Shown here: one piece after another, positions 8,680 through 15,408 of the stretch
Layout: each line of letters begins with the position of its first letter
Position numbering within the stretch: the stretch's first letter is position 1
NCBI GenBank assembly: GCA_934121925.1
Contig: CAKOVK010000004.1
Coordinates: forward strand, 1,899-65,898
Direction: 5' to 3'
DNA length: 64,000 bases
Origin: an uncultured Clostridia bacterium
GTDB lineage: Bacteria; Bacillota; Clostridia; TANB77; CAG-508
Translations under genes and position numbers: made by a program
Notes under the pieces: model-generated
Database searches by the model: none
What the model saw: the letters and a program-made list of their open reading frames with translations, nothing else
Told to the model about the DNA's origin: nothing

Positions 8680-9706
8680 AAAAGCAAAAATAGAAGATTC
8701 AAATAACATAGCAAAACTTATTATAAGAGGCTGGCAGACAGCATATAAAGGACTTATAAACCAAGAATTTTTAGACAGTATGAAAGAAGATGAAATGAGT
8801 AAATGATGGAAGAAAAGCATTTTTTCCCAAAATGAAAGCAATAACATATATGTATATGAGAAAGAAAATAAAATTTTAGGAGTTATTAGATTTGGAAAAG
8901 TAGCTGATCAAAATGATATAAATCACAATGCAGAAATACATGTTTTGTATGTAGAGCCAAAACTTAAAAGAAATGGAATAGGAAGTAAATTATTTGATTA
9001 TGCAAAAAACTACTTTATAGAACATAATATGAAAAAATTAATTATTTGGTGTTTAAAAGGAAATGAGCCATCTATAGAATTTTATAAAAAGATGGGTGGA
9101 AAAATTGTTTCAGAAAGAGAAGCAAAAGTACACAATATAGAGCTAGAGGAAGTAGGTTTGGAATATAATTTGGAAGATAAAATAAAATTACTAATACCAA
9201 CTAAAGAGTACGAAAATCAAGCAATAGAATATAAAAAAGAGCATTTTGATAATGGAGAAAAAACATTACATGCGTGTTCAAAATGGGATAGAATGGATAA
9301 TTATGATGAATGGCTAAAACTATTAAAAAGTAATTCAAAAAAGGAAACAGTACAAGATAATTATGCTGTTACAACTCAATTCTTTGGAGTGAGAGAAAGA
9401 GATAATAAAATTGTTGGAATGATAAATATTAGGCATGAATTAGCAAATGATTTCTTAAGAAATTATGGAGGAAATATAGGATATGGAATAAGACCAACAG
9501 AAAGAAGAAAAGGATATGCAACACAAATGCTTGAACAAGCTTTAAAATATTGTAAAGAAGAACTTAACTTAGAAAAAGTAATGCTTGGATGTTATAAAGA
9601 AAATGAAGCATCAAGAAGGACAATTTTAAATGCAGGAGGAATACTAGAAAGAGAATTAAAAACAGAAAACGGAAAAATAGCACAGGTATATTGGATTAAA
9701 TTGTAA
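8672..9706 (+). pseudogene. tandem-GNAT acetyltransferase interrupted by in-frame TGA (8804-8806)
   Basis: ATG 8672 (MIRKAKIEDSNNIAKLIIRGWQTAYKG...EMSK) and the ORF running to 9706 are in the same frame, separated only by TGA 8804-8806. Both halves have GNAT cores (LYVEPKLKRNGIGSKL; IRPTERRKGYATQML). Confidence 0.7.
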
Positions 9707-9713
9707 AAAACTA

Positions 9714-9743
9714 TTGACAGGACAAAAAAATGTATGCTATCAT
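9714..9743 (+). promoter_or_regulatory. sigma-A promoter (TTGACA-18-TATCAT)
   Basis: TTGACA 9714-9719, TATCAT 9738-9743, 25 nt upstream of the leader ORF. Confidence 0.55.
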
Positions 9744-9767
9744 ATATTTTAATTAGAGAGGTATATT

Positions 9768-9896
9768 ATGGAAACAAAAATAGTATTTAGAAACGAGCAT
9801 CATAAAAATTAGCTTGTGTCATATATATGGCACAGGCTTTTGGTGCTTGTGCCTAAGATTTAAACCTTATGGTAGAAGTGCCATAAGGTTTTTTTG
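9768..9896 (+). promoter_or_regulatory. leader-peptide attenuator: 14-codon ORF METKIVFRNEHHKN plus alternative hairpins and terminator
   Basis: SD GAGAGG, ATG 9768, stop 9810-9812, tandem His codons 9798-9803. Hairpins TGTGTCAT/ATGGCACA and GGCACAGG/CTTGTGCC. Terminator AACCTTATGG-N8-CCATAAGGTT followed by TTTTTTT (9863-9896). Confidence 0.55.
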
Positions 9897-9963
9897 TTGT
9901 TAAAATAAGCTGGCCAGCTTAAAACAAAACTCTCTTAAAATATAAGGAGGAATGAGATTAAAT

Positions 9964-10782
9964 ATGAAAAAGAAAATTATTTTTATTACAACAATTGCAA
10001 TAATTGTAATGCTTGGAGTGCTTACAGCAATTACAATGAAAAGGACAAATGTAAAACAAAATTCATTAGAAAAAATAACAAGTAAAGGAACTTTTATATT
10101 AGGGCTTGACGATAGCTTTCCACCAATGGGATTCAGAAACGAAAACAATGAAATTGTTGGCTTTGATATTGATGTAGCAAAAGAAGTTTGCAAAAGATTA
10201 AATGTAGAATTAGTAATACAACCAATATCTTGGAATGCAAAAGAACAGGAATTAAATTCTGGTAACGTAGACTGCATTTGGAATGGGATGTCTATAACAG
10301 AAGAAAGAAAACAAGCAATGTTATTATCTGATTCGTACATGAAAAATAGGATGGTATTCATTACAAAACAAGACAGTAATCTAAAGACCTTAGAAGATTT
10401 AAAAAACAAAAAAGTAGGAGTTCAATCTGGTTCAAGTGCGGAGCAAATATTGGAAGAGTCAGAAACTTACAAAACATTAAACCAAACAGTTGCATATGCA
10501 GATAATATTACAGCCTTTATGGATTTGGAAACAAATCAAATTGATGCAGTATTTGTAGATGAAGTGCTAGCTAATTATTATATAGCAACAAATAATAAAA
10601 ACTATAACCAAATAGAACAAGCTTTAGAAGAAGAGCAATATGCAATAGGATTTAGAAAACAAGACAATGAATTATGCAATAAAGTAAATGAGATTCTAAA
10701 AGAAATAAAAGAAGACGGAACATTAGAAGCAATATCTAAAAAGTGGTTTGGAAAAGATGTTACGACAATTAAAGGGGAGTAA
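9964..10782 (+). CDS. polar amino-acid ABC transporter substrate-binding lipoprotein/anchored protein (PBP2 family)
   Basis: N-terminal signal/anchor MKKKIIFITTIAIIVMLGVL. LGLDDSFPPMGF...GFDIDVAKE...WNGMSITEERK is typical of the His/Glu/Gln/Arg-binding family. ATG 9964 is preferred over 9952 on SD spacing. Confidence 0.85.
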   Translation: MKKKIIFITTIAIIVMLGVLTAITMKRTNVKQNSLEKITSKGTFILGLDDSFPPMGFRNENNEIVGFDIDVAKEVCKRLNVELVIQPISWNAKEQELNSGNVDCIWNGMSITEERKQAMLLSDSYMKNRMVFITKQDSNLKTLEDLKNKKVGVQSGSSAEQILEESETYKTLNQTVAYADNITAFMDLETNQIDAVFVDEVLANYYIATNNKNYNQIEQALEEEQYAIGFRKQDNELCNKVNEILKEIKEDGTLEAISKKWFGKDVTTIKGE

Positions 10783-10784
10783 AT

Positions 10785-11435
10785 ATGGATTTAAATTACT
10801 TTATTAAATTAATGAAAATATTATTGGATGGAACAAAAGTATCTTTAAGAATATTTGCTATAACACTAATATTTGCAATACCTTTAGGAATATTAGTTTC
10901 TGCTTTAAGTATTTCTAAGAACAAGATAATTTCAAAAATAATAAAGCTGTATATATTGCTTATGAGAGGAACCCCATTATTATTGCAAATAATCTGTATA
11001 TACTTTGCGCCATATTATTTGTTTAAATTTTCATACAACAGATTTATAGCAGTAATTATTGCATTTACATTAAACTATGCAGCATATTTTGGAGAAATAT
11101 TTAGAGGTGGAATAGAAAGCATTCCAAAAGGCCAATGGGAGGTTGCTTTTACATTAGGCTTTACTAAAATAAAAACATTTTTTATAGTGATACTTCCTCA
11201 AGCAATAAAAAGAATATTACCATCAATTTCAAATGAAGTAATAACTTTGGTAAGAGATACTTCGCTAGCACAAGTAATTGGAGTGACAGAATTGTTTGCT
11301 TTTGCTCAAAAACAAGCTAATTATAAGTTTTCTATAATTCCATTGCTTGTTGCAGGATTAATCTATTTATTAATTAGTGTAATTTTAACCTATATTTTTA
11401 ATTACACAGAAAGGAAATTAGAGTATTATAGGTAA
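10785..11435 (+). CDS. amino-acid ABC transporter permease (HisM/GlnP type)
   Basis: 216 aa, multi-TM, EAA-like loop (FTLGFTKIKTFFIVILPQAIKRILP). Confidence 0.85.
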   Translation: MDLNYFIKLMKILLDGTKVSLRIFAITLIFAIPLGILVSALSISKNKIISKIIKLYILLMRGTPLLLQIICIYFAPYYLFKFSYNRFIAVIIAFTLNYAAYFGEIFRGGIESIPKGQWEVAFTLGFTKIKTFFIVILPQAIKRILPSISNEVITLVRDTSLAQVIGVTELFAFAQKQANYKFSIIPLLVAGLIYLLISVILTYIFNYTERKLEYYR

Positions 11436-11440
11436 ATATT

Positions 11441-12097
11441 ATGAAAGTATTAGAAATAAAAAATATAAACAAGAGCTTTAACGAAAGAAAGGTATTAAGC
11501 AATTTTTCGCTAAATATTGAAGAAGGAGAAATAGTTTCGATAATAGGGCCATCAGGAGTTGGAAAGTCAACTTTATTAAGATGCATTAATGGTTTGGAAA
11601 AAATAGATAGTGGAGAAATCTTAATTAATAATAAAAGTTTAAAAAGAAAAAAAGATAAAATATCAAAAGAAGCAAATTTAGAAGTGGGATTAGTGTTTCA
11701 AGACTACAATTTATTTCCTCAGTATTCTGTGATTAAAAATATAACATTACCATTAACAACAGTACTAAAAATAGAAAAAGAAGAAGCAACAAAACAAGCA
11801 GAAGAATTACTTAAAAAAATGAATTTATTAGAAAAGCGATATTCATATCCATACGAGTTATCAGGAGGAGAAAGACAACGAGTAGCAATAGCAAGAACGA
11901 TTGCTACAAATCCTAAAATAATATGTTTTGATGAACCAACTAGTGCATTAGATCCAAAACTTGTAATGCAAGTTTCGAAAACAATAAAAGACCTTGCAAA
12001 TATTGGCAAAGCAATAATAATAGTAACTCACGATATAAGCTTTGCAGAACAAATTTCAGACAGGATTATAGAAGTAAAACTGGAATTTGTAAAATGA
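11441..12097 (+). CDS. amino-acid ABC transporter ATP-binding protein
   Basis: Walker A GPSGVGKST, signature LSGGERQR, Walker B IICFDEPTSALD. Confidence 0.92.
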   Translation: MKVLEIKNINKSFNERKVLSNFSLNIEEGEIVSIIGPSGVGKSTLLRCINGLEKIDSGEILINNKSLKRKKDKISKEANLEVGLVFQDYNLFPQYSVIKNITLPLTTVLKIEKEEATKQAEELLKKMNLLEKRYSYPYELSGGERQRVAIARTIATNPKIICFDEPTSALDPKLVMQVSKTIKDLANIGKAIIIVTHDISFAEQISDRIIEVKLEFVK

Positions 12098-12133
12098 ATG
12101 TGAGAGGTGTGATGTGGGAAGTAGGATTTGTAG

Positions 12134-12281
12134 GGGCGTATTGAATACGCCCAAAAAAGAATTTATTGCAAACTCTACAGCAGAGATTAACTAAAAATGT
12201 TGGGGCAGGCCCTGTGTCTGCCCGAAAAAATGATATTTTGTTATATACAAAAACCAGAACGAATGGGGACAGCCCCCTTTT
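12134..12281. repeat. cluster of three GC-rich hairpins in a 300-bp non-coding gap
   Basis: GGGCGTAT-TGA-ATACGCCC (12134-12152, A-run after). GGGCAG-N9-CTGCCC (12203-12223, A-run after). GGGGACAGCCCC (12265-12276, T-run after). Together they create the spurious 84-aa antisense ORF 12066-12320. Confidence 0.6.
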
Positions 12282-12448
12282 GTCAAATAAGAGAGAAACA
12301 ACCTTAAATGAAAAATTCAATAAATTGCATTAAAAATGTTTTAATATAAAAATAATATGTTATAATATTACTAATAATGAAAAGAAATATAATAAATTTG
12401 TACATCAGAATATTCTTTTCAATGTTATTAAAGGAGGAAAAATAAAAT

Positions 12449-12598
12449 ATGAAAAATATTGTATTATATGTGATTTGCTGTTGTATTTAGAGCTCTACCT
12501 AATTTGTAGGTATGAGTTTTATTATACATACCTGCAAATCAATATATAATACAAATTTTATATATAGAGTTATGCAGGTATATGCATAACTTTTTTTG
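12449..12598 (+). promoter_or_regulatory. cysteine leader-peptide attenuator (MKNIVLYVICCCI) upstream of cysK
   Basis: SD AAAGGAGG, ATG 12449, TGC-TGT-TGT at 12476-12484, stop 12488-12490. Segment 1 TTTGTAGGTATG (12503-14) pairs with segment 2 CATACCTGCAAA (12527-38). Segment 2 alternatively pairs with segment 3 TGCAGGTAT (12573-81). Segments 3:4 form the terminator AGTTATGCA-GGTATA-TGCATAACT plus T7 (12568-12598). Confidence 0.72.
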
Positions 12599-12685
12599 TT
12601 GAACAGAAAAACAAGAGAAAAGTTGACTTTTGGGGTAGCATAAAATGAAAAATTGAATAAATTAAAACAAGGAGGATATTTGAGT

Positions 12686-13639
12686 ATGAAAGTAGGAAAT
12701 ACACCATTAATAAAGATTAAGTATAAATATAATAACAAGGAAAAATACGTTTATTCCAAATTAGAATCATATAATTTGACAGGAAGTATAAAGGATAGGG
12801 TGGCTTATTATATTATAAAATCGGCATATGAAAACAAAAAATTAGAAAAAGGAAAAGAAATAGTAGAAGCAACAAGTGGAAATACTGGCATTGCATTAGC
12901 AGCTATGGGAGCCTTCTTTGGAAATCCTGTTCATATATTTATGCCAGATTGGGTAAGTAAAGAAAGAGTAGATCTAATGAAAATGTATAATGCAAAGATA
13001 ACATTAATATCTAAAGAAGAAGGTGGATTTAAAAAGGCAATATCCGAAGCTATTAAATATGCAAATGAAAATAATGCTTTTTTAAGTAATCAATTTGAAA
13101 ACGAAGATAATGTGTTAGCACATTATGAAACTACAGGAAAGGAAATAGTAGAAAAATTAAAAAGTAATATAGGGGGATTTGTTTCAGGGATAGGTACTGG
13201 AGGAACTTTAATGGGAGTTGCAAAAAGATTAAAAGAAGAAAATAAAGAAGTAAAAATTTATGCACTAGAACCAGATAAAATGCCTTTACTATCAAAAAAC
13301 GAAATTATAGATAACCATAAAATAGAAGGAATAGGAGATGATTTTATTCCTAAAATAGTAGATAAAGAAAAAATTGATAAAGTTATTTTAATAAATGATG
13401 AAGATGCTATAAATATGTCAAGAAAAATAGCAACAGAATTAGGAATTGGAGTCGGAATATCATCTGGAGCCAATATGATTGCAAGTGTACTTGCAAAAGA
13501 AGAAAATGAAGGAAATATAGTTACAGTATTTCCAGATGATAACAAAAAATACTTATCAACAGAATTGAGCAAGCCAATAGATAAAAATGAAGAATTTATA
13601 TCTAATAAAATTGAATTATTAGATTATGAATTTATATAA
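12686..13639 (+). CDS. cysK: cysteine synthase A (O-acetylserine sulfhydrylase)
   Basis: ATG 12686 after AAGGAGG. PLP-lysine motif TGSIKDR, plus SGNTGIALA and GTGGT loops. Confidence 0.9.
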   Translation: MKVGNTPLIKIKYKYNNKEKYVYSKLESYNLTGSIKDRVAYYIIKSAYENKKLEKGKEIVEATSGNTGIALAAMGAFFGNPVHIFMPDWVSKERVDLMKMYNAKITLISKEEGGFKKAISEAIKYANENNAFLSNQFENEDNVLAHYETTGKEIVEKLKSNIGGFVSGIGTGGTLMGVAKRLKEENKEVKIYALEPDKMPLLSKNEIIDNHKIEGIGDDFIPKIVDKEKIDKVILINDEDAINMSRKIATELGIGVGISSGANMIASVLAKEENEGNIVTVFPDDNKKYLSTELSKPIDKNEEFISNKIELLDYEFI

Positions 13640-13643
13640 ATAA

Positions 13644-13845
13644 TTGACAATATAAAAAGATTTTCATATAATTATATTATAAAGGAGACAAAACCATGAG
13701 TAATTTAACAAATGCAAAATTAAATAACTGGTGGAATGTATGGGATAAAAATCACCCATACAAATTTGTCGTGCTTTAAAATATTAGTAAAATACAGGCA
13801 CATGTATGAGTGATTAAAAACTTGTACATGTGCTTTTTGTTGTTT
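13644..13845 (+). promoter_or_regulatory. promoter plus tryptophan leader-peptide attenuator (27-codon ORF with WWNVW) upstream of trpB
   Basis: TTGACA 13644-49, 17-nt spacer, TATAAT 13667-72. SD AAAGGAG. ORF 13696-13779 encodes MSNLTNAKLNNWWNVWDKNHPYKFVVL, with TGG at 13729, 13732 and 13741. Candidate antiterminator CACCCATACA (13753-62) pairs with TGTATGAGTG (13803-12). Terminator GCACATGTA-N18-TACATGTGC plus TTTTT (13798-13845). Confidence 0.72.
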
Positions 13846-13925
13846 ATGGGAGGTGGTGCATATGGAAGCTGACTGGCATTGGCAAATCTTATATAAAATT
13901 ATTTTAAAGAAAGAAGGAATTGATT

Positions 13926-15068
13926 ATGAATTATGGAGAGTTTGGTGGACAATATGTACCACAAGAATTAAAAGAGAAATTAAATGAAATTGAAAAAGAA
14001 TTTACAAAAGCAAAAAATGATGAAAAGTTCGTAAAGGAATATTTATACTATTTAAAACAATATGTTGGAAGACCAACACCACTATATTATGCAGAAAACT
14101 TAAGTAAATATGCAGGTGGGGCAAAGATATATTTAAAAAGAGAAGATTTAAATCATACAGGAGCACACAAAATAAACAATGCATTGGGGCAAGTTTTACT
14201 TGCAAAACGTATGAATAAAACACACATAATTGCAGAAACGGGAGCAGGCCAACATGGAGTTGCAACTGCAACAGTGTGTAGTTTATTTAATATTAAATGC
14301 ACAATATTTATGGGGAAAGAAGATATAAAAAGACAAGAAGTAAATGTAGAGAAAATGAAACTTTTAGGAGCAGAAGTTTATGAAGTAACAAAAGGTGAAG
14401 GAACATTAAAAGAAGCAGTAGATGAATCCTTTGAATATCTATTAAAACATCAAGATGTATTTTACTTAATAGGTTCTGCAGTGGGCCCAAGCCCATATCC
14501 AGAAATGGTAAAATATTTTCAAAAAATAATAGGAGAAGAAGCAAAAAAACAAATTTTAGAAAAAGAAGACAAATTACCTAAAGCAATAGTTGCGTGTATA
14601 GGTGGAGGAAGCAATAGTATAGGGCTATTTACAGACTTTATAAAAGAAGAGGTACAAATATTTGGAATAGAGGGAGCAGGAAAAGGCATAAAAACAGGAA
14701 AACATGCATCTGCAATATATAACAATAAAATTGGAATTTTACATGGAATGAAAACATATATAATGCAAGATGATAAAGGAAACATAGAAGAGGCGTATTC
14801 AATTTCAGCAGGTTTGGATTATCCAGGAATTGGACCAGAACACGCATACTTGAAATCTATAAGAAGAGTTAAGTATGACAGCATTACAGATAAAGAAGCA
14901 GTAGAAGCATTTAAGCTACTTTGTAGATTAGAAGGAATAATACCAGCATTAGAAAGTAGCCATGCAATAGCATATGCAATAAAAATTGCAAAAAACTATA
15001 AAAATAATGACAGCATTATTGTAAACCTATCTGGAAGAGGAGATAAGGATATAGAAATAATAAACTGA
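13926..15068 (+). CDS. trpB: tryptophan synthase beta chain (stand-alone, no trpA nearby)
   Basis: HTGAHKINN (PLP lysine), [19 protein letters not shown] motifs. ATG 13926. Confidence 0.92.
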
Positions 15069-15099
15069 GGGAAAAAGGGGGCTGTCCCCTTTTTCCCTC
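15067..15099. terminator. GC-core hairpin terminator GAGGGAAAAAGGGG-GCTGT-CCCCTTTTTCCCTC
   Basis: Perfect 14-bp stem overlapping the trpB stop. Near-identical copy at 18646-18678. Confidence 0.85.
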
Positions 15100-15101
15100 T
15101 A

Positions 15102-15408
15102 TTGACAAATCGCAATTTTTATGGTATTAATATTAATATATTTTAAAAGCAATGAAGAGGAATAGTATATATTTATGAACTTTTAGAGAAGAGTTGGTTG
15201 GTGAAAAACTTTAAGGAACTAAATATAGAACCAGCCTTGGAGCTATGGACTGAAAATTAAAGTAAGTTTTATCGGAAATCCACCGTTATCATAGGATATA
15301 ATGTTATAAGACATTATTTGAGTGTAGAAGAAATTCTAAAAATAGGTGGTAACACGGATAAAAATATTCGCCCTAAGTTAATAAATATAACTTAGGGCTT
15401 TTGTATTT
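15102..15408 (+). promoter_or_regulatory. promoter plus T-box leader (Pro specifier CCA) of proS
   Basis: TTGACA 15102-07, 17-nt spacer, TATTAA. Stem I elements AGTA and AGAGAAGAGTTGGTTGGTGAAAA. Candidate specifier GAA-CCA-G (CCA 15231-33). T-box sequence AGGTGGTAACACGG (15344-57). Terminator GCCCTAAG-N13-CTTAGGGC plus TTTT (15370-15403). Confidence 0.82.

Follow-up and report, generated by a model that had tools for sequence, protein, structure and literature searches.

A 64,000-nucleotide stretch of DNA from an uncultured gut Clostridia bacterium (contig CAKOVK010000004.1 of assembly GCA_934121925.1; hereafter the window, with all coordinates counted from its first letter) carries a cysK homologue, and 196 nt upstream of this gene stands a short open reading frame (ORF) with three consecutive cysteine codons, followed by an intrinsic terminator. 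This arrangement raises the question of whether the supply of cysteine, read by a ribosome on the short ORF, decides if cysK is transcribed. The textbook picture for cysteine genes of the Firmicutes is control by T-box, S-box or CymR. The original prediction, which was made from the letters of the window, was that a ribosome stalling at the Cys run controls the terminator through a textbook 1:2/2:3/3:4 attenuator. Its core is supported by the recurrence of the leader, by compensatory changes in the helices, by the switching of the codons together with the downstream gene and by the lack of any Rfam match; its textbook architecture did not hold. The element is, very probably, a cysteine-responsive leader-peptide transcription attenuator that controls cysK and is built as a five-segment relay instead of the classical four.

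Structure of the leader

Direct reading of the sequence found every element that had been proposed: the ORF, its Shine–Dalgarno (SD) sequence, the three pairings and the T7 terminator. The features of the locus are listed here with the evidence for each, MFE standing for the minimum free energy structure.

12358..12366, +, candidate extended −10 promoter TGTTATAAT of the leader transcript, proposed from sequence reading, with no good −35
12430..12437, +, SD AAAGGAGG serving the leader ORF, 11 nt 5′ of its ATG (sequence reading)
12447..12478, +, outer helix 5′ arm, spanning the start codon and the first 10 leader codons; partner 12534-12565 (MFE)
12449..12490, +, leader ORF MKNIVLYVICCCI (sequence; identical in the independent assemblies L001 and L002)
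12476..12484, +, regulatory codons TGC TGT TGT, Cys three times (sequence reading)
12488..12501, +, segment 0, from the stop codon; partner segment 1 (12507-12521), −13.4 kcal/mol (MFE, covariation)
12502..12521, +, segment 1; partner segment 0 (via 12507-21) or segment 2 (via 12502-14) (sequence, MFE, alignment)
12524..12539, +, segment 2; partners segment 1 (12527-39, −15.4 kcal/mol), segment 3 (12528-36, antiterminator) or, in ribosome-free RNA, the Cys codons (12524-31 with 12480-86) (sequence, folds, alignment)
12534..12565, +, spacer, the outer helix 3′ arm, complementary to the leader ORF (MFE)
12566..12581, +, segment 3, the terminator 5′ arm (12566-76) and loop bases; 12573-81 is the antiterminator side toward segment 2 (sequence, terminator scan, folds)
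12583..12597, +, segment 4, the terminator 3′ arm (12583-93), overlapping T7 (12591-97) (sequence, terminator scan, folds)
12686..13639, +, regulated gene, a CysK/CysM-family pyridoxal-phosphate enzyme of 317 aa, with its own SD AAGGAGGA at 12670-77 (NCBIfam, PDB sequence search)

The leader ORF reads ATG AAA AAT ATT GTA TTA TAT GTG ATT TGC TGT TGT ATT TAG and encodes MKNIVLYVICCCI in 13 codons; its last four sense codons are Cys-Cys-Cys-Ile, a single Ile codon separating the third Cys codon from the stop. An AAGGA/GGAGG motif is found 8-12 nt 5′ of the ATG in all of the homologous leaders described below. The consensus promoter scan requires a −35 match, and TGTTATAAT at 12358-12366 is therefore unlisted; three of the homologous leaders (L022, L025 and L054) have TTGACA-17-TA(T/C)AAT just 5′ of the leader SD.

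The pairing of 12503-14 (TTTGTAGGTATG) with 12527-38 (CATACCTGCAAA) reads as predicted, with 12 bp and one G-U, as does the antiterminator, in which 12528-36 (ATACCTGCA) pairs perfectly with 12573-81 (TGCAGGTAT) over 9 bp. The terminator had been given as 12568-76/12583-91 with T7; it is present, although its stem is longer than claimed (12566-76/12583-93, 11 bp, with T7 at 12591-97), and 12566-97 was flagged independently by a consensus terminator scan. Folding of 12425-12605 with RNAfold, a check proposed along with the prediction, gave −57.1 kcal/mol compared with −28.9 ± 3.6 kcal/mol for 200 dinucleotide shuffles (z = −7.9), none of which was as good as the native sequence. The MFE structure contains two helices that had been missed, namely a hairpin of −13.4 kcal/mol that starts at the leader stop codon (12488-12501 with 12507-12521) and a long helix between the leader ORF (12447-12478) and the spacer (12534-12565); it also pairs the Cys codons (12480-86) with 12524-31.

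The label of cysteine synthase for the regulated gene is right at the family level, although the protein falls below the NCBI equivalog cut-offs (311 bits against TIGR01136, with a cut-off of 344, and 294 bits against TIGR01139 cysK, with a cut-off of 351). Its best solved relatives in a PDB sequence search are all named cysteine synthase. The nearest are PDB entries 5B53/5Z5C (E 2e-92, ∼55% identity), compared with E 1e-63 or weaker for canonical O-acetylserine sulfhydrylases. We take 5B53 to be Fusobacterium nucleatum Fn1055. Fn1055 makes H2S and L-serine from L-cysteine in vitro (PMC9600241).

Ribosome position and alternative folds

The textbook scheme fails on distance. A distance of 19-27 nt separates the Cys codons (12476-84) from segment 1 (12503-14) downstream, and this geometry ruled out masking of segment 1 by a stalled ribosome, whose 3′ edge is only ∼12 nt past the A-site codon. 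As the stalled ribosome cannot reach segment 1, sensing would need both segment 0 (12488-12501) and the outer helix that buries the ORF, and both of these are conserved.

We infer the ribosome footprints, the order of folding and the response to cysteine in the following sequence of events. The transcript would begin upstream of 12430 and carry the 13-codon ORF. With the ribosome absent, the ORF would pair with the spacer (12534-65) and the Cys codons with segment 2, leaving segment 3 free to form the terminator (12566-93 and T7), with cysK off. With ample Cys-tRNA, a ribosome at the stop codon (12488-90) would cover segment 0, and the freed segment 1 would capture segment 2, again allowing the 3:4 terminator. 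With scarce Cys-tRNA, a ribosome stalled with a Cys codon in the A site would cover the Cys codons and hold the outer helix open, yet fall short of segment 0; the 0:1 helix would then hold segment 1, and the free segment 2 would take the emerging segment 3 (12528-36/12573-81), giving read-through into cysK.

These states were examined by constrained folding of transcripts truncated before the terminator 3′ arm and carrying a ribosome block of 26-30 nt. A stall at any of the Cys codons gave 0:1 and 2:3; with the ribosome placed at the stop, 1:2 formed and segment 3 was free when the 3′ edge was set at A+10, and in most leaders also at A+12; folds without a ribosome gave a closed hairpin, also with segment 3 free. 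The outer helix would explain why the naked RNA is in the OFF state although 0:1 forms by default. The three-state picture is consistent in the window and in L009 (stop state at A+10 only), L017, L022, L049 and L054, and the expected outcomes were obtained at A+10 in six of the seven leaders and in most at A+12, but not at A+14.

The ON pair of the window (0:1, −13.4 kcal/mol, and 2:3, −19.3 kcal/mol) is nearly isoenergetic with the OFF pair (1:2, −15.4 kcal/mol, and 3:4, −12.5 kcal/mol, with a spacer hairpin). As judged from the sequence, the regulatory codons beside the stop, the fifth segment at the stop codon and the helix-buried ORF make this leader a distinct architectural variant.

Recurrence upstream of cysK homologues

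We fetched 80 species-representative genomes encoding close CysK homologues and examined the regions upstream of cysK. Short Cys-run ORFs, whose conservation the original prediction had made a point to check, recur at eight of these 80 species-level loci. Each lies within 350 nt upstream of the gene, starts with ATG, is 12-16 codons long and has an unbroken run of 3-5 Cys codons. Only ten other short ORFs with a CCC run occur in ∼1.17 Mb (both strands of all loci and the window), most of them antisense to genes and with TTG or GTG starts; the chance expectation is ∼0.24 Cys-run ORFs in 80 upstream regions, and the Poisson probability of eight is ∼2e-10. The peptides are as follows.

L009, leader peptide MKKSVLYTVCCCCR
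L017, leader peptide MSLIIIANCCCM
L022, leader peptide MIKNIFVNCCCCMI
L025, leader peptide MILINIISNCCCCMK
L049, leader peptide MNKYLVNNCCCLK
L054, leader peptide MNKNIIMNCCCCK
L037, leader peptide MTKCCCCCSFCFFLQY, with a layout unlike the other loci
L039, leader peptide MTKCCCCCSFCFFLPY, with a layout unlike the other loci

A covariance model of the leader (R1) finds the scaffold at six of the 80 loci, each with a Cys ORF, and nowhere else in their 506 kb. The Cys runs of the homologues stand in the same place, 1-2 codons before the stop, with synonymous TGT/TGC variation, while the peptide outside the run is not conserved.

The two leaders of different layout come from Bacilli metagenome-assembled genomes (MAGs; L037 2790-2840 and L039 726-776). 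They have five consecutive Cys codons at the 5′ end (MTKCCCCCSFCFFLQY/PY) upstream of cysK, a different arrangement of hairpin and terminator, and AGGAGG within the terminator 3′ arm; in this type a Cys leader seems to have arisen independently. Among the leaderless cysK homologues, no T-box or riboswitch was found upstream of cysK in the 20 loci checked. Another Clostridia MAG (L023 2745-2821) has a skipping-rope RNA (RF02924, 45.7 bits, above the gathering score) directly upstream of its cysK homologue.

A probable common scaffold for several amino acids

To look beyond cysK, metagenome contigs were scanned with a pattern for the block from segment 1 to segment 2, which includes no Cys codons: TTGTAGRNRYGAGTN{8,11}CRTRCCTRCA. 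The 21 hits comprise 15 genuine family members and six chance matches in GC-richer coding DNA. Genuine hits that are not truncated by the contig end have an SD-led short ORF, a terminator whose 5′ arm is complementary to segment 2, and an amino-acid-related gene downstream. In 17 members, 11-17 nt separate the leader stop from segment 1; L099 is the exception, as an insertion there sets segments 0 and 1 apart. The regulatory codons stand 1-2 codons before the stop in all members except L103. The codons and the downstream genes correspond as follows.

CCC leaders (L083, L085, L086, L087, L092, L094): cysK
CCC leader MKQNNVVINCCCR (L100): cysS (TIGR00435, 470 bits)
RRR leaders MKNINVVIRRRHV and MENINVVIRRRCM (L088, L093): fusion of a GNAT domain and acetylglutamate kinase (argB) (TIGR00761, 226 bits)
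HHH or HH leaders MKNIIIRLHHHNR (L099, L103): hisG (TIGR00070, 193 bits), followed in L103 by a probable hisD, judged by eye
Leader truncated at the contig end (L089): acetolactate synthase large subunit

Beyond the stretch fixed by the pattern, leaders of different specificity are 67-78% identical in the 5′ part and 51-77% in the 3′ part (z 3.4-8.6), which is as high as among the Cys leaders themselves. This match of codon to gene within a single scaffold speaks most strongly for a ribosome reading the codons as the signal, and against a Cys run that serves merely for base-pairing. We consider it probable, with a good deal more reserve than for the cysK attenuator itself, that the cysK leader belongs to a group of attenuators in uncultured gut Clostridia whose scaffolds are related in sequence, and that the swapping of 2-5 codons just before the stop has re-targeted this scaffold to three amino-acid pathways at least, and probably to four (Cys: cysK and cysS; Arg: the GNAT-argB fusion; His: hisG; possibly branched-chain: acetolactate synthase).

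This comparison also bears on what else the leader might be. Were the hairpins and terminator controlled by a protein (CymR or an RNA-binding protein, for example), or were they a T-box-like element or riboswitch, with the short ORF incidental and untranslated, this would agree with the classical control of Firmicutes cysteine genes, and the window does use a T-box, at 15143-15378. Yet 12100-12700 is without a match in Rfam, with E values of up to 10 allowed. The T-box model (RF00230) has no match in 9600-14000 at the same limit, 15143-15378 being the sole T-box of the window, and neither SAM (S-box) nor the other Rfam 15 riboswitch models match, the only hits being chance-level microRNA and small RNA matches with E above 0.2; a scan of the whole window returned just one tRNA and the T-box. 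Moreover, the peptide varies outside the Cys run, whereas the run itself, the ORF and the SD are conserved, synonymous TGT/TGC changes preserve Cys, and an element of this kind would not predict a codon run that switches to Arg or His with the downstream gene on homologous RNA. We regard it as highly improbable.

A leader that senses translation in general (ribosome availability or a global slowdown, by ermC-type or pyrBI-type coupling) rather than cysteine is also unlikely, if slightly less so. The outer helix does make read-through depend on any ribosome being on the ORF, and any slow codon near the stop would have an equal structural effect; against this, runs of 3-5 identical codons that match the pathway one-to-one (Cys, Arg, His) argue for amino-acid specificity. 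That the ORF encodes a functional Cys-rich micropeptide, either metal-binding or the precursor of a RiPP (a peptide made by the ribosome and then modified), would suit the strong SD and the conserved ORF with its Cys cluster. It is scarcely credible for a peptide of 13 residues which is not conserved outside the Cys run, whose nucleotides are constrained to pair with the spacer and whose homologues carry Arg or His in place of Cys; modification genes were not found nearby.

Two of the cysK members of the scaffold have a second SD-led mini-ORF with Cys codons before the cysK start, ∼100 nt after the terminator in L087 (MEQCCCVFYSKKLLFKGE) and ∼30 nt after it in L092 (MKLVCCIP), each ending in a stop codon; this may be a second, translational layer of Cys sensing. 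L097 (oriented 3481-4100) has tandem attenuator-like units. The first is a scaffold member with the leader MKNINTILRHWHK, and the second has the ORF MEKILKVLKQLHHHKTHLYQVY, both complete to the stop, followed by two terminator-like hairpins; the genes downstream encode small zinc-ribbon-like proteins.

Conservation of the helices

Base pairs were counted on two alignments, one of the 5′ block (A2, 17 leaders) and one of segment 2 and the terminator with the spacer spliced out (A3, 19 leaders). A whole-leader MAFFT alignment (A1) was abandoned, as the variable spacer and a wrong range for L049 misaligned its 3′ half. A3 misregisters L017, L054 and L086 by 1-2 nt in segment 3, and the counts for 2:3 are hence conservative.

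Helix 0:1, 93.6% paired, changes on both sides at 5 pairs (21 cells), 17 leaders
Helix 1:2, 92.0% paired, changes on both sides at 3 pairs (8 cells)
Helix 2:3, 85.2% paired, changes on both sides at 2 pairs (5 cells)
Helix 3:4, 90.9% paired, changes on both sides at 7 pairs (19 cells), 19 leaders

Controls with slid registers were 20-58% paired. Segment 0 and the terminator lie outside the search pattern, and their pair counts are thus independent of how the leaders were retrieved. One column of segment 1 pairs with segment 0 in all 17 leaders (U-A or C-G) but is an A.C mismatch against segment 2 in 12 of the 17, which looks like a deliberate weakening of 1:2 relative to 0:1. The antiterminator duplex has an energy of −11.4 to −19.6 kcal/mol in the 19 leaders, compared with −5 to −7.5 kcal/mol when shuffled (3-5 standard deviations better). 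The outer helix of the window has a duplex energy of −24.7 kcal/mol (z = −7.3 against a shuffled spacer), and an equivalent helix is found at z −4 or better in 13 of 17 family members despite their differing sequences.

Points against the proposed attenuator

Several observations weigh against a five-segment attenuator at cysK. The distance of 11 nt from SD to ATG is on the long side, and the promoter of the leader is a guess at an extended −10. The scan pattern fixes most of segments 1 and 2, so that the conservation of helix 1:2 is partly by construction. With the footprint edge at A+14 the stop-codon state no longer yields 1:2 in several leaders, and L025, in which the outer helix is weak, adopts the ON state without needing a ribosome. 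Full-length equilibrium folds with ribosome masks contain the terminator in nearly every state. The leader is also dispensable: the five closest homologues that are not conspecific (L004-L008, with 77-90% CysK identity) are without it, and a conspecific MAG (L003, CysK 99% identical) lacks the promoter, the ORF and segments 0-2. As for the equilibrium folds, these were set aside as uninformative for a kinetic switch and replaced by the folds of truncated transcripts described above; the near-equal energies of the ON and OFF pairs, taken with the equilibrium preference for the terminator, imply that the decision must be kinetic.

Another possibility is that cysK is constitutive, with a promoter of its own in 12598-12685; the terminator at 12566-97 would then do no more than end an orphan transcript or one from upstream, and the leader would be a decaying remnant. 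The homologues L004-L008 manage leaderless, L003 has an insertion with TGCTATAAT between its terminator remnant and cysK, and TTGACT at 12624-29 could be part of a promoter. The promoter scan, however, lists nothing between 12598 and 12685; TTGACT at 12624 was rejected as a second promoter, since it stands just 12 nt from the nearest −10-like hexamer (TAAAAT), a spacing that is unusable. The full leader is intact and the locus is identical in the two independent assemblies, and across species the leader is under purifying and compensatory selection. A constitutive cysK is accordingly very unlikely, and we retain the cysteine-responsive attenuator.

The rearranged locus can be described more closely. 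In L003 (2650-2990) the equivalent of window 12291-12556 is deleted, with a short palindrome in its place; the terminator is kept, and ∼140 nt containing TGCTATAAT are inserted between it and cysK. The rearrangement may reflect an artefact of assembly or, if real, a natural way around attenuation.

Comparison with known systems

The classical enterobacterial attenuators (trp and especially his) likewise have a short ORF rich in cognate codons, mutually exclusive hairpins, an intrinsic terminator and termination as the default without translation. The enterobacterial his leader has segments A-F, with A:B, C:D and E:F against B:C and D:E, and this multi-layer relay resembles that of the cysK leader. 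The cysK leader nevertheless has no sequence or Rfam relationship to these attenuators, senses cysteine and belongs to a Firmicute host. Its codons stand 1-2 before the stop, its ORF is wholly buried in a helix with the spacer, and its decision would lie in whether or not the ribosome, by moving only 6-12 nt, comes to cover the segment that starts at the stop codon. T-box leaders are alike in sensing uncharged or scarce tRNA, in setting an antiterminator against a terminator and in being re-targetable through a few specifier nucleotides, but the cysK leader has no tRNA-binding architecture or Rfam match and would sense through the ribosome rather than by direct tRNA binding.

The doubt expressed in the original prediction as to precedent holds for cysK: a literature search of incomplete coverage, in which absence is not proof, found no Cys leader before cysK in Clostridia or other Firmicutes, and equally no report of a single attenuator scaffold serving several amino acids. 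Leader peptides with Cys runs have, however, been described or predicted elsewhere. One is uORFC-8-2 before cysS in the Rhodobacterales, a predicted ribosome-mediated attenuator with tandem Cys codons in an upstream ORF (uORF) and a terminator with a U run (Brewer et al. 2021, PMC8632094). It shares the Cys-codon uORF and the terminator with our family, of which L100 also stands before cysS. By its description it differs in being limited to alpha-proteobacteria and to cysS and in having two Cys codons at positions ∼14-15 inside the first of two stems; uORFC-8-2, itself a prediction, is by that description unrelated to the cysK leader in sequence and architecture.

In Actinobacteria, leader peptides with Cys runs near the stop have been predicted without terminators (Seliverstov et al. 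2005, PMC1262725), and mycobacterial polycysteine leaderless small ORFs (Ms5788A) act translationally (Canestrari et al., bioRxiv 10.1101/834739); according to the latter authors, cysteine had no previously described case of attenuation through a uORF. These elements resemble the cysK leader in having a Cys run near the stop of a short ORF before cysteine genes and in sensing Cys-tRNA by stalling. The mycobacterial elements are leaderless, pair the poly-Cys tract with the downstream SD and have no terminator, whereas the cysK leader has an SD-led ORF, a terminator and an antiterminator. An element of the Ms5788A type was not found at the window locus, which has a 5′ untranslated region, an SD and a terminator, and in which the MFE pairs the Cys tract with 12524-31 and not with the cysK SD at 12670-77.

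Within the Firmicutes, His-leader attenuators have been predicted in the B. cereus group, Peptostreptococcaceae and Erysipelotrichales (PMC9413887, PMC2965389), and S. aureus ilv has a Leu-rich attenuator (PMC5794164). These show that leader-peptide attenuation exists there beside T-boxes, but none is described for cysteine or cysK. The His-type members of our family (L099, L103 and possibly window 9768-9812) may overlap with the predicted Firmicutes His leaders.

Other elements in the window

Two further leaders lie close to that of cysK. Upstream of an amino-acid ATP-binding cassette (ABC) transporter (9964-12097), 9714-9891 contains a promoter (9714-43), an ORF (9768-9812) and a terminator (9862-91). 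The ORF encodes METKIVFRNEHHKN, with His-His two codons before the stop, and is followed by GCTTGTGTCATA / TATGGCACAGGC / GCTTGTGCC and the terminator; in constrained folds it follows the five-segment logic of the cysK leader. The His-His codons suggest that the transporter imports histidine, although in NCBIfam it scores best against transporters of Lys/Arg/Orn, cystine and glutamine, each time below cut-off.

Upstream of trpB (13926-15068), 13644-13835 has a perfect TTGACA-17-TATAAT promoter (13644-72), an SD-led 27-codon ORF (13696-13779; MSNLTNAKLNNWWNVWDKNHPYKFVVL and a stop) with three Trp codons, and then a 16-bp terminator (13796-13835). In constrained folds a hairpin at 13736-61 holds the third Trp codon and competes with an antiterminator formed with the terminator 5′ arm. 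These features suggest a classical Trp attenuator. Firmicutes use TRAP or T-box for Trp, and a Trp leader peptide is unusual there. Covariance model R1 finds only one copy of the scaffold in the window and no sequence relationship to the leader at 9714-9891; the idea that the His-type and Trp-type leaders are copies of the cysK scaffold was thus rejected, and they are analogous rather than related in sequence.

The T-box leader (15143-15378, 114 bits) lies upstream of the prolyl-tRNA synthetase gene proS (15553-17241), so that T-box and leader-peptide attenuation occur within 6 kb of one genome. A GC-rich hairpin core, GGGGACAGCCCC, is found at 12265-12276 (+), 15078-15089 (−) and 18657-18668 (−), in each case intergenic and after gene ends; these three matches compare with 0.01 expected in this AT-rich genome. 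Further GC-rich hairpins are present at 12133-12153 and 12203-12225. The GC-rich hairpins are probably shared terminators or elements like the repetitive extragenic palindromic (REP) type.

Implications

The cysK leader would add cysteine, and cysK, to the short list of pathways attenuated by leader peptides, and would do so in the Firmicutes. If the scaffold is indeed shared, a single RNA switch has been redirected in evolution to several amino acids through the replacement of codons, which would be the ribosome-read counterpart of specifier swapping in T-boxes. Such a scaffold would be a naturally modular, programmable sensor, in which the codons (the sensor) are separable from the five-segment relay and the ORF-burying helix (the switch), and, being small and needing no protein, it would be a useful part for building gene switches that respond to amino acids in Gram-positive hosts.

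The codon run also serves as a free functional label for the gene behind it. Here, it argues that a diverged CysK-family enzyme runs in the cysteine-making direction, and induction by Cys starvation would argue that this CysK subfamily is a physiological serine sulfhydrase making cysteine. Genes nearby could be labelled likewise, among them the ABC transporter that follows the His-His leader.

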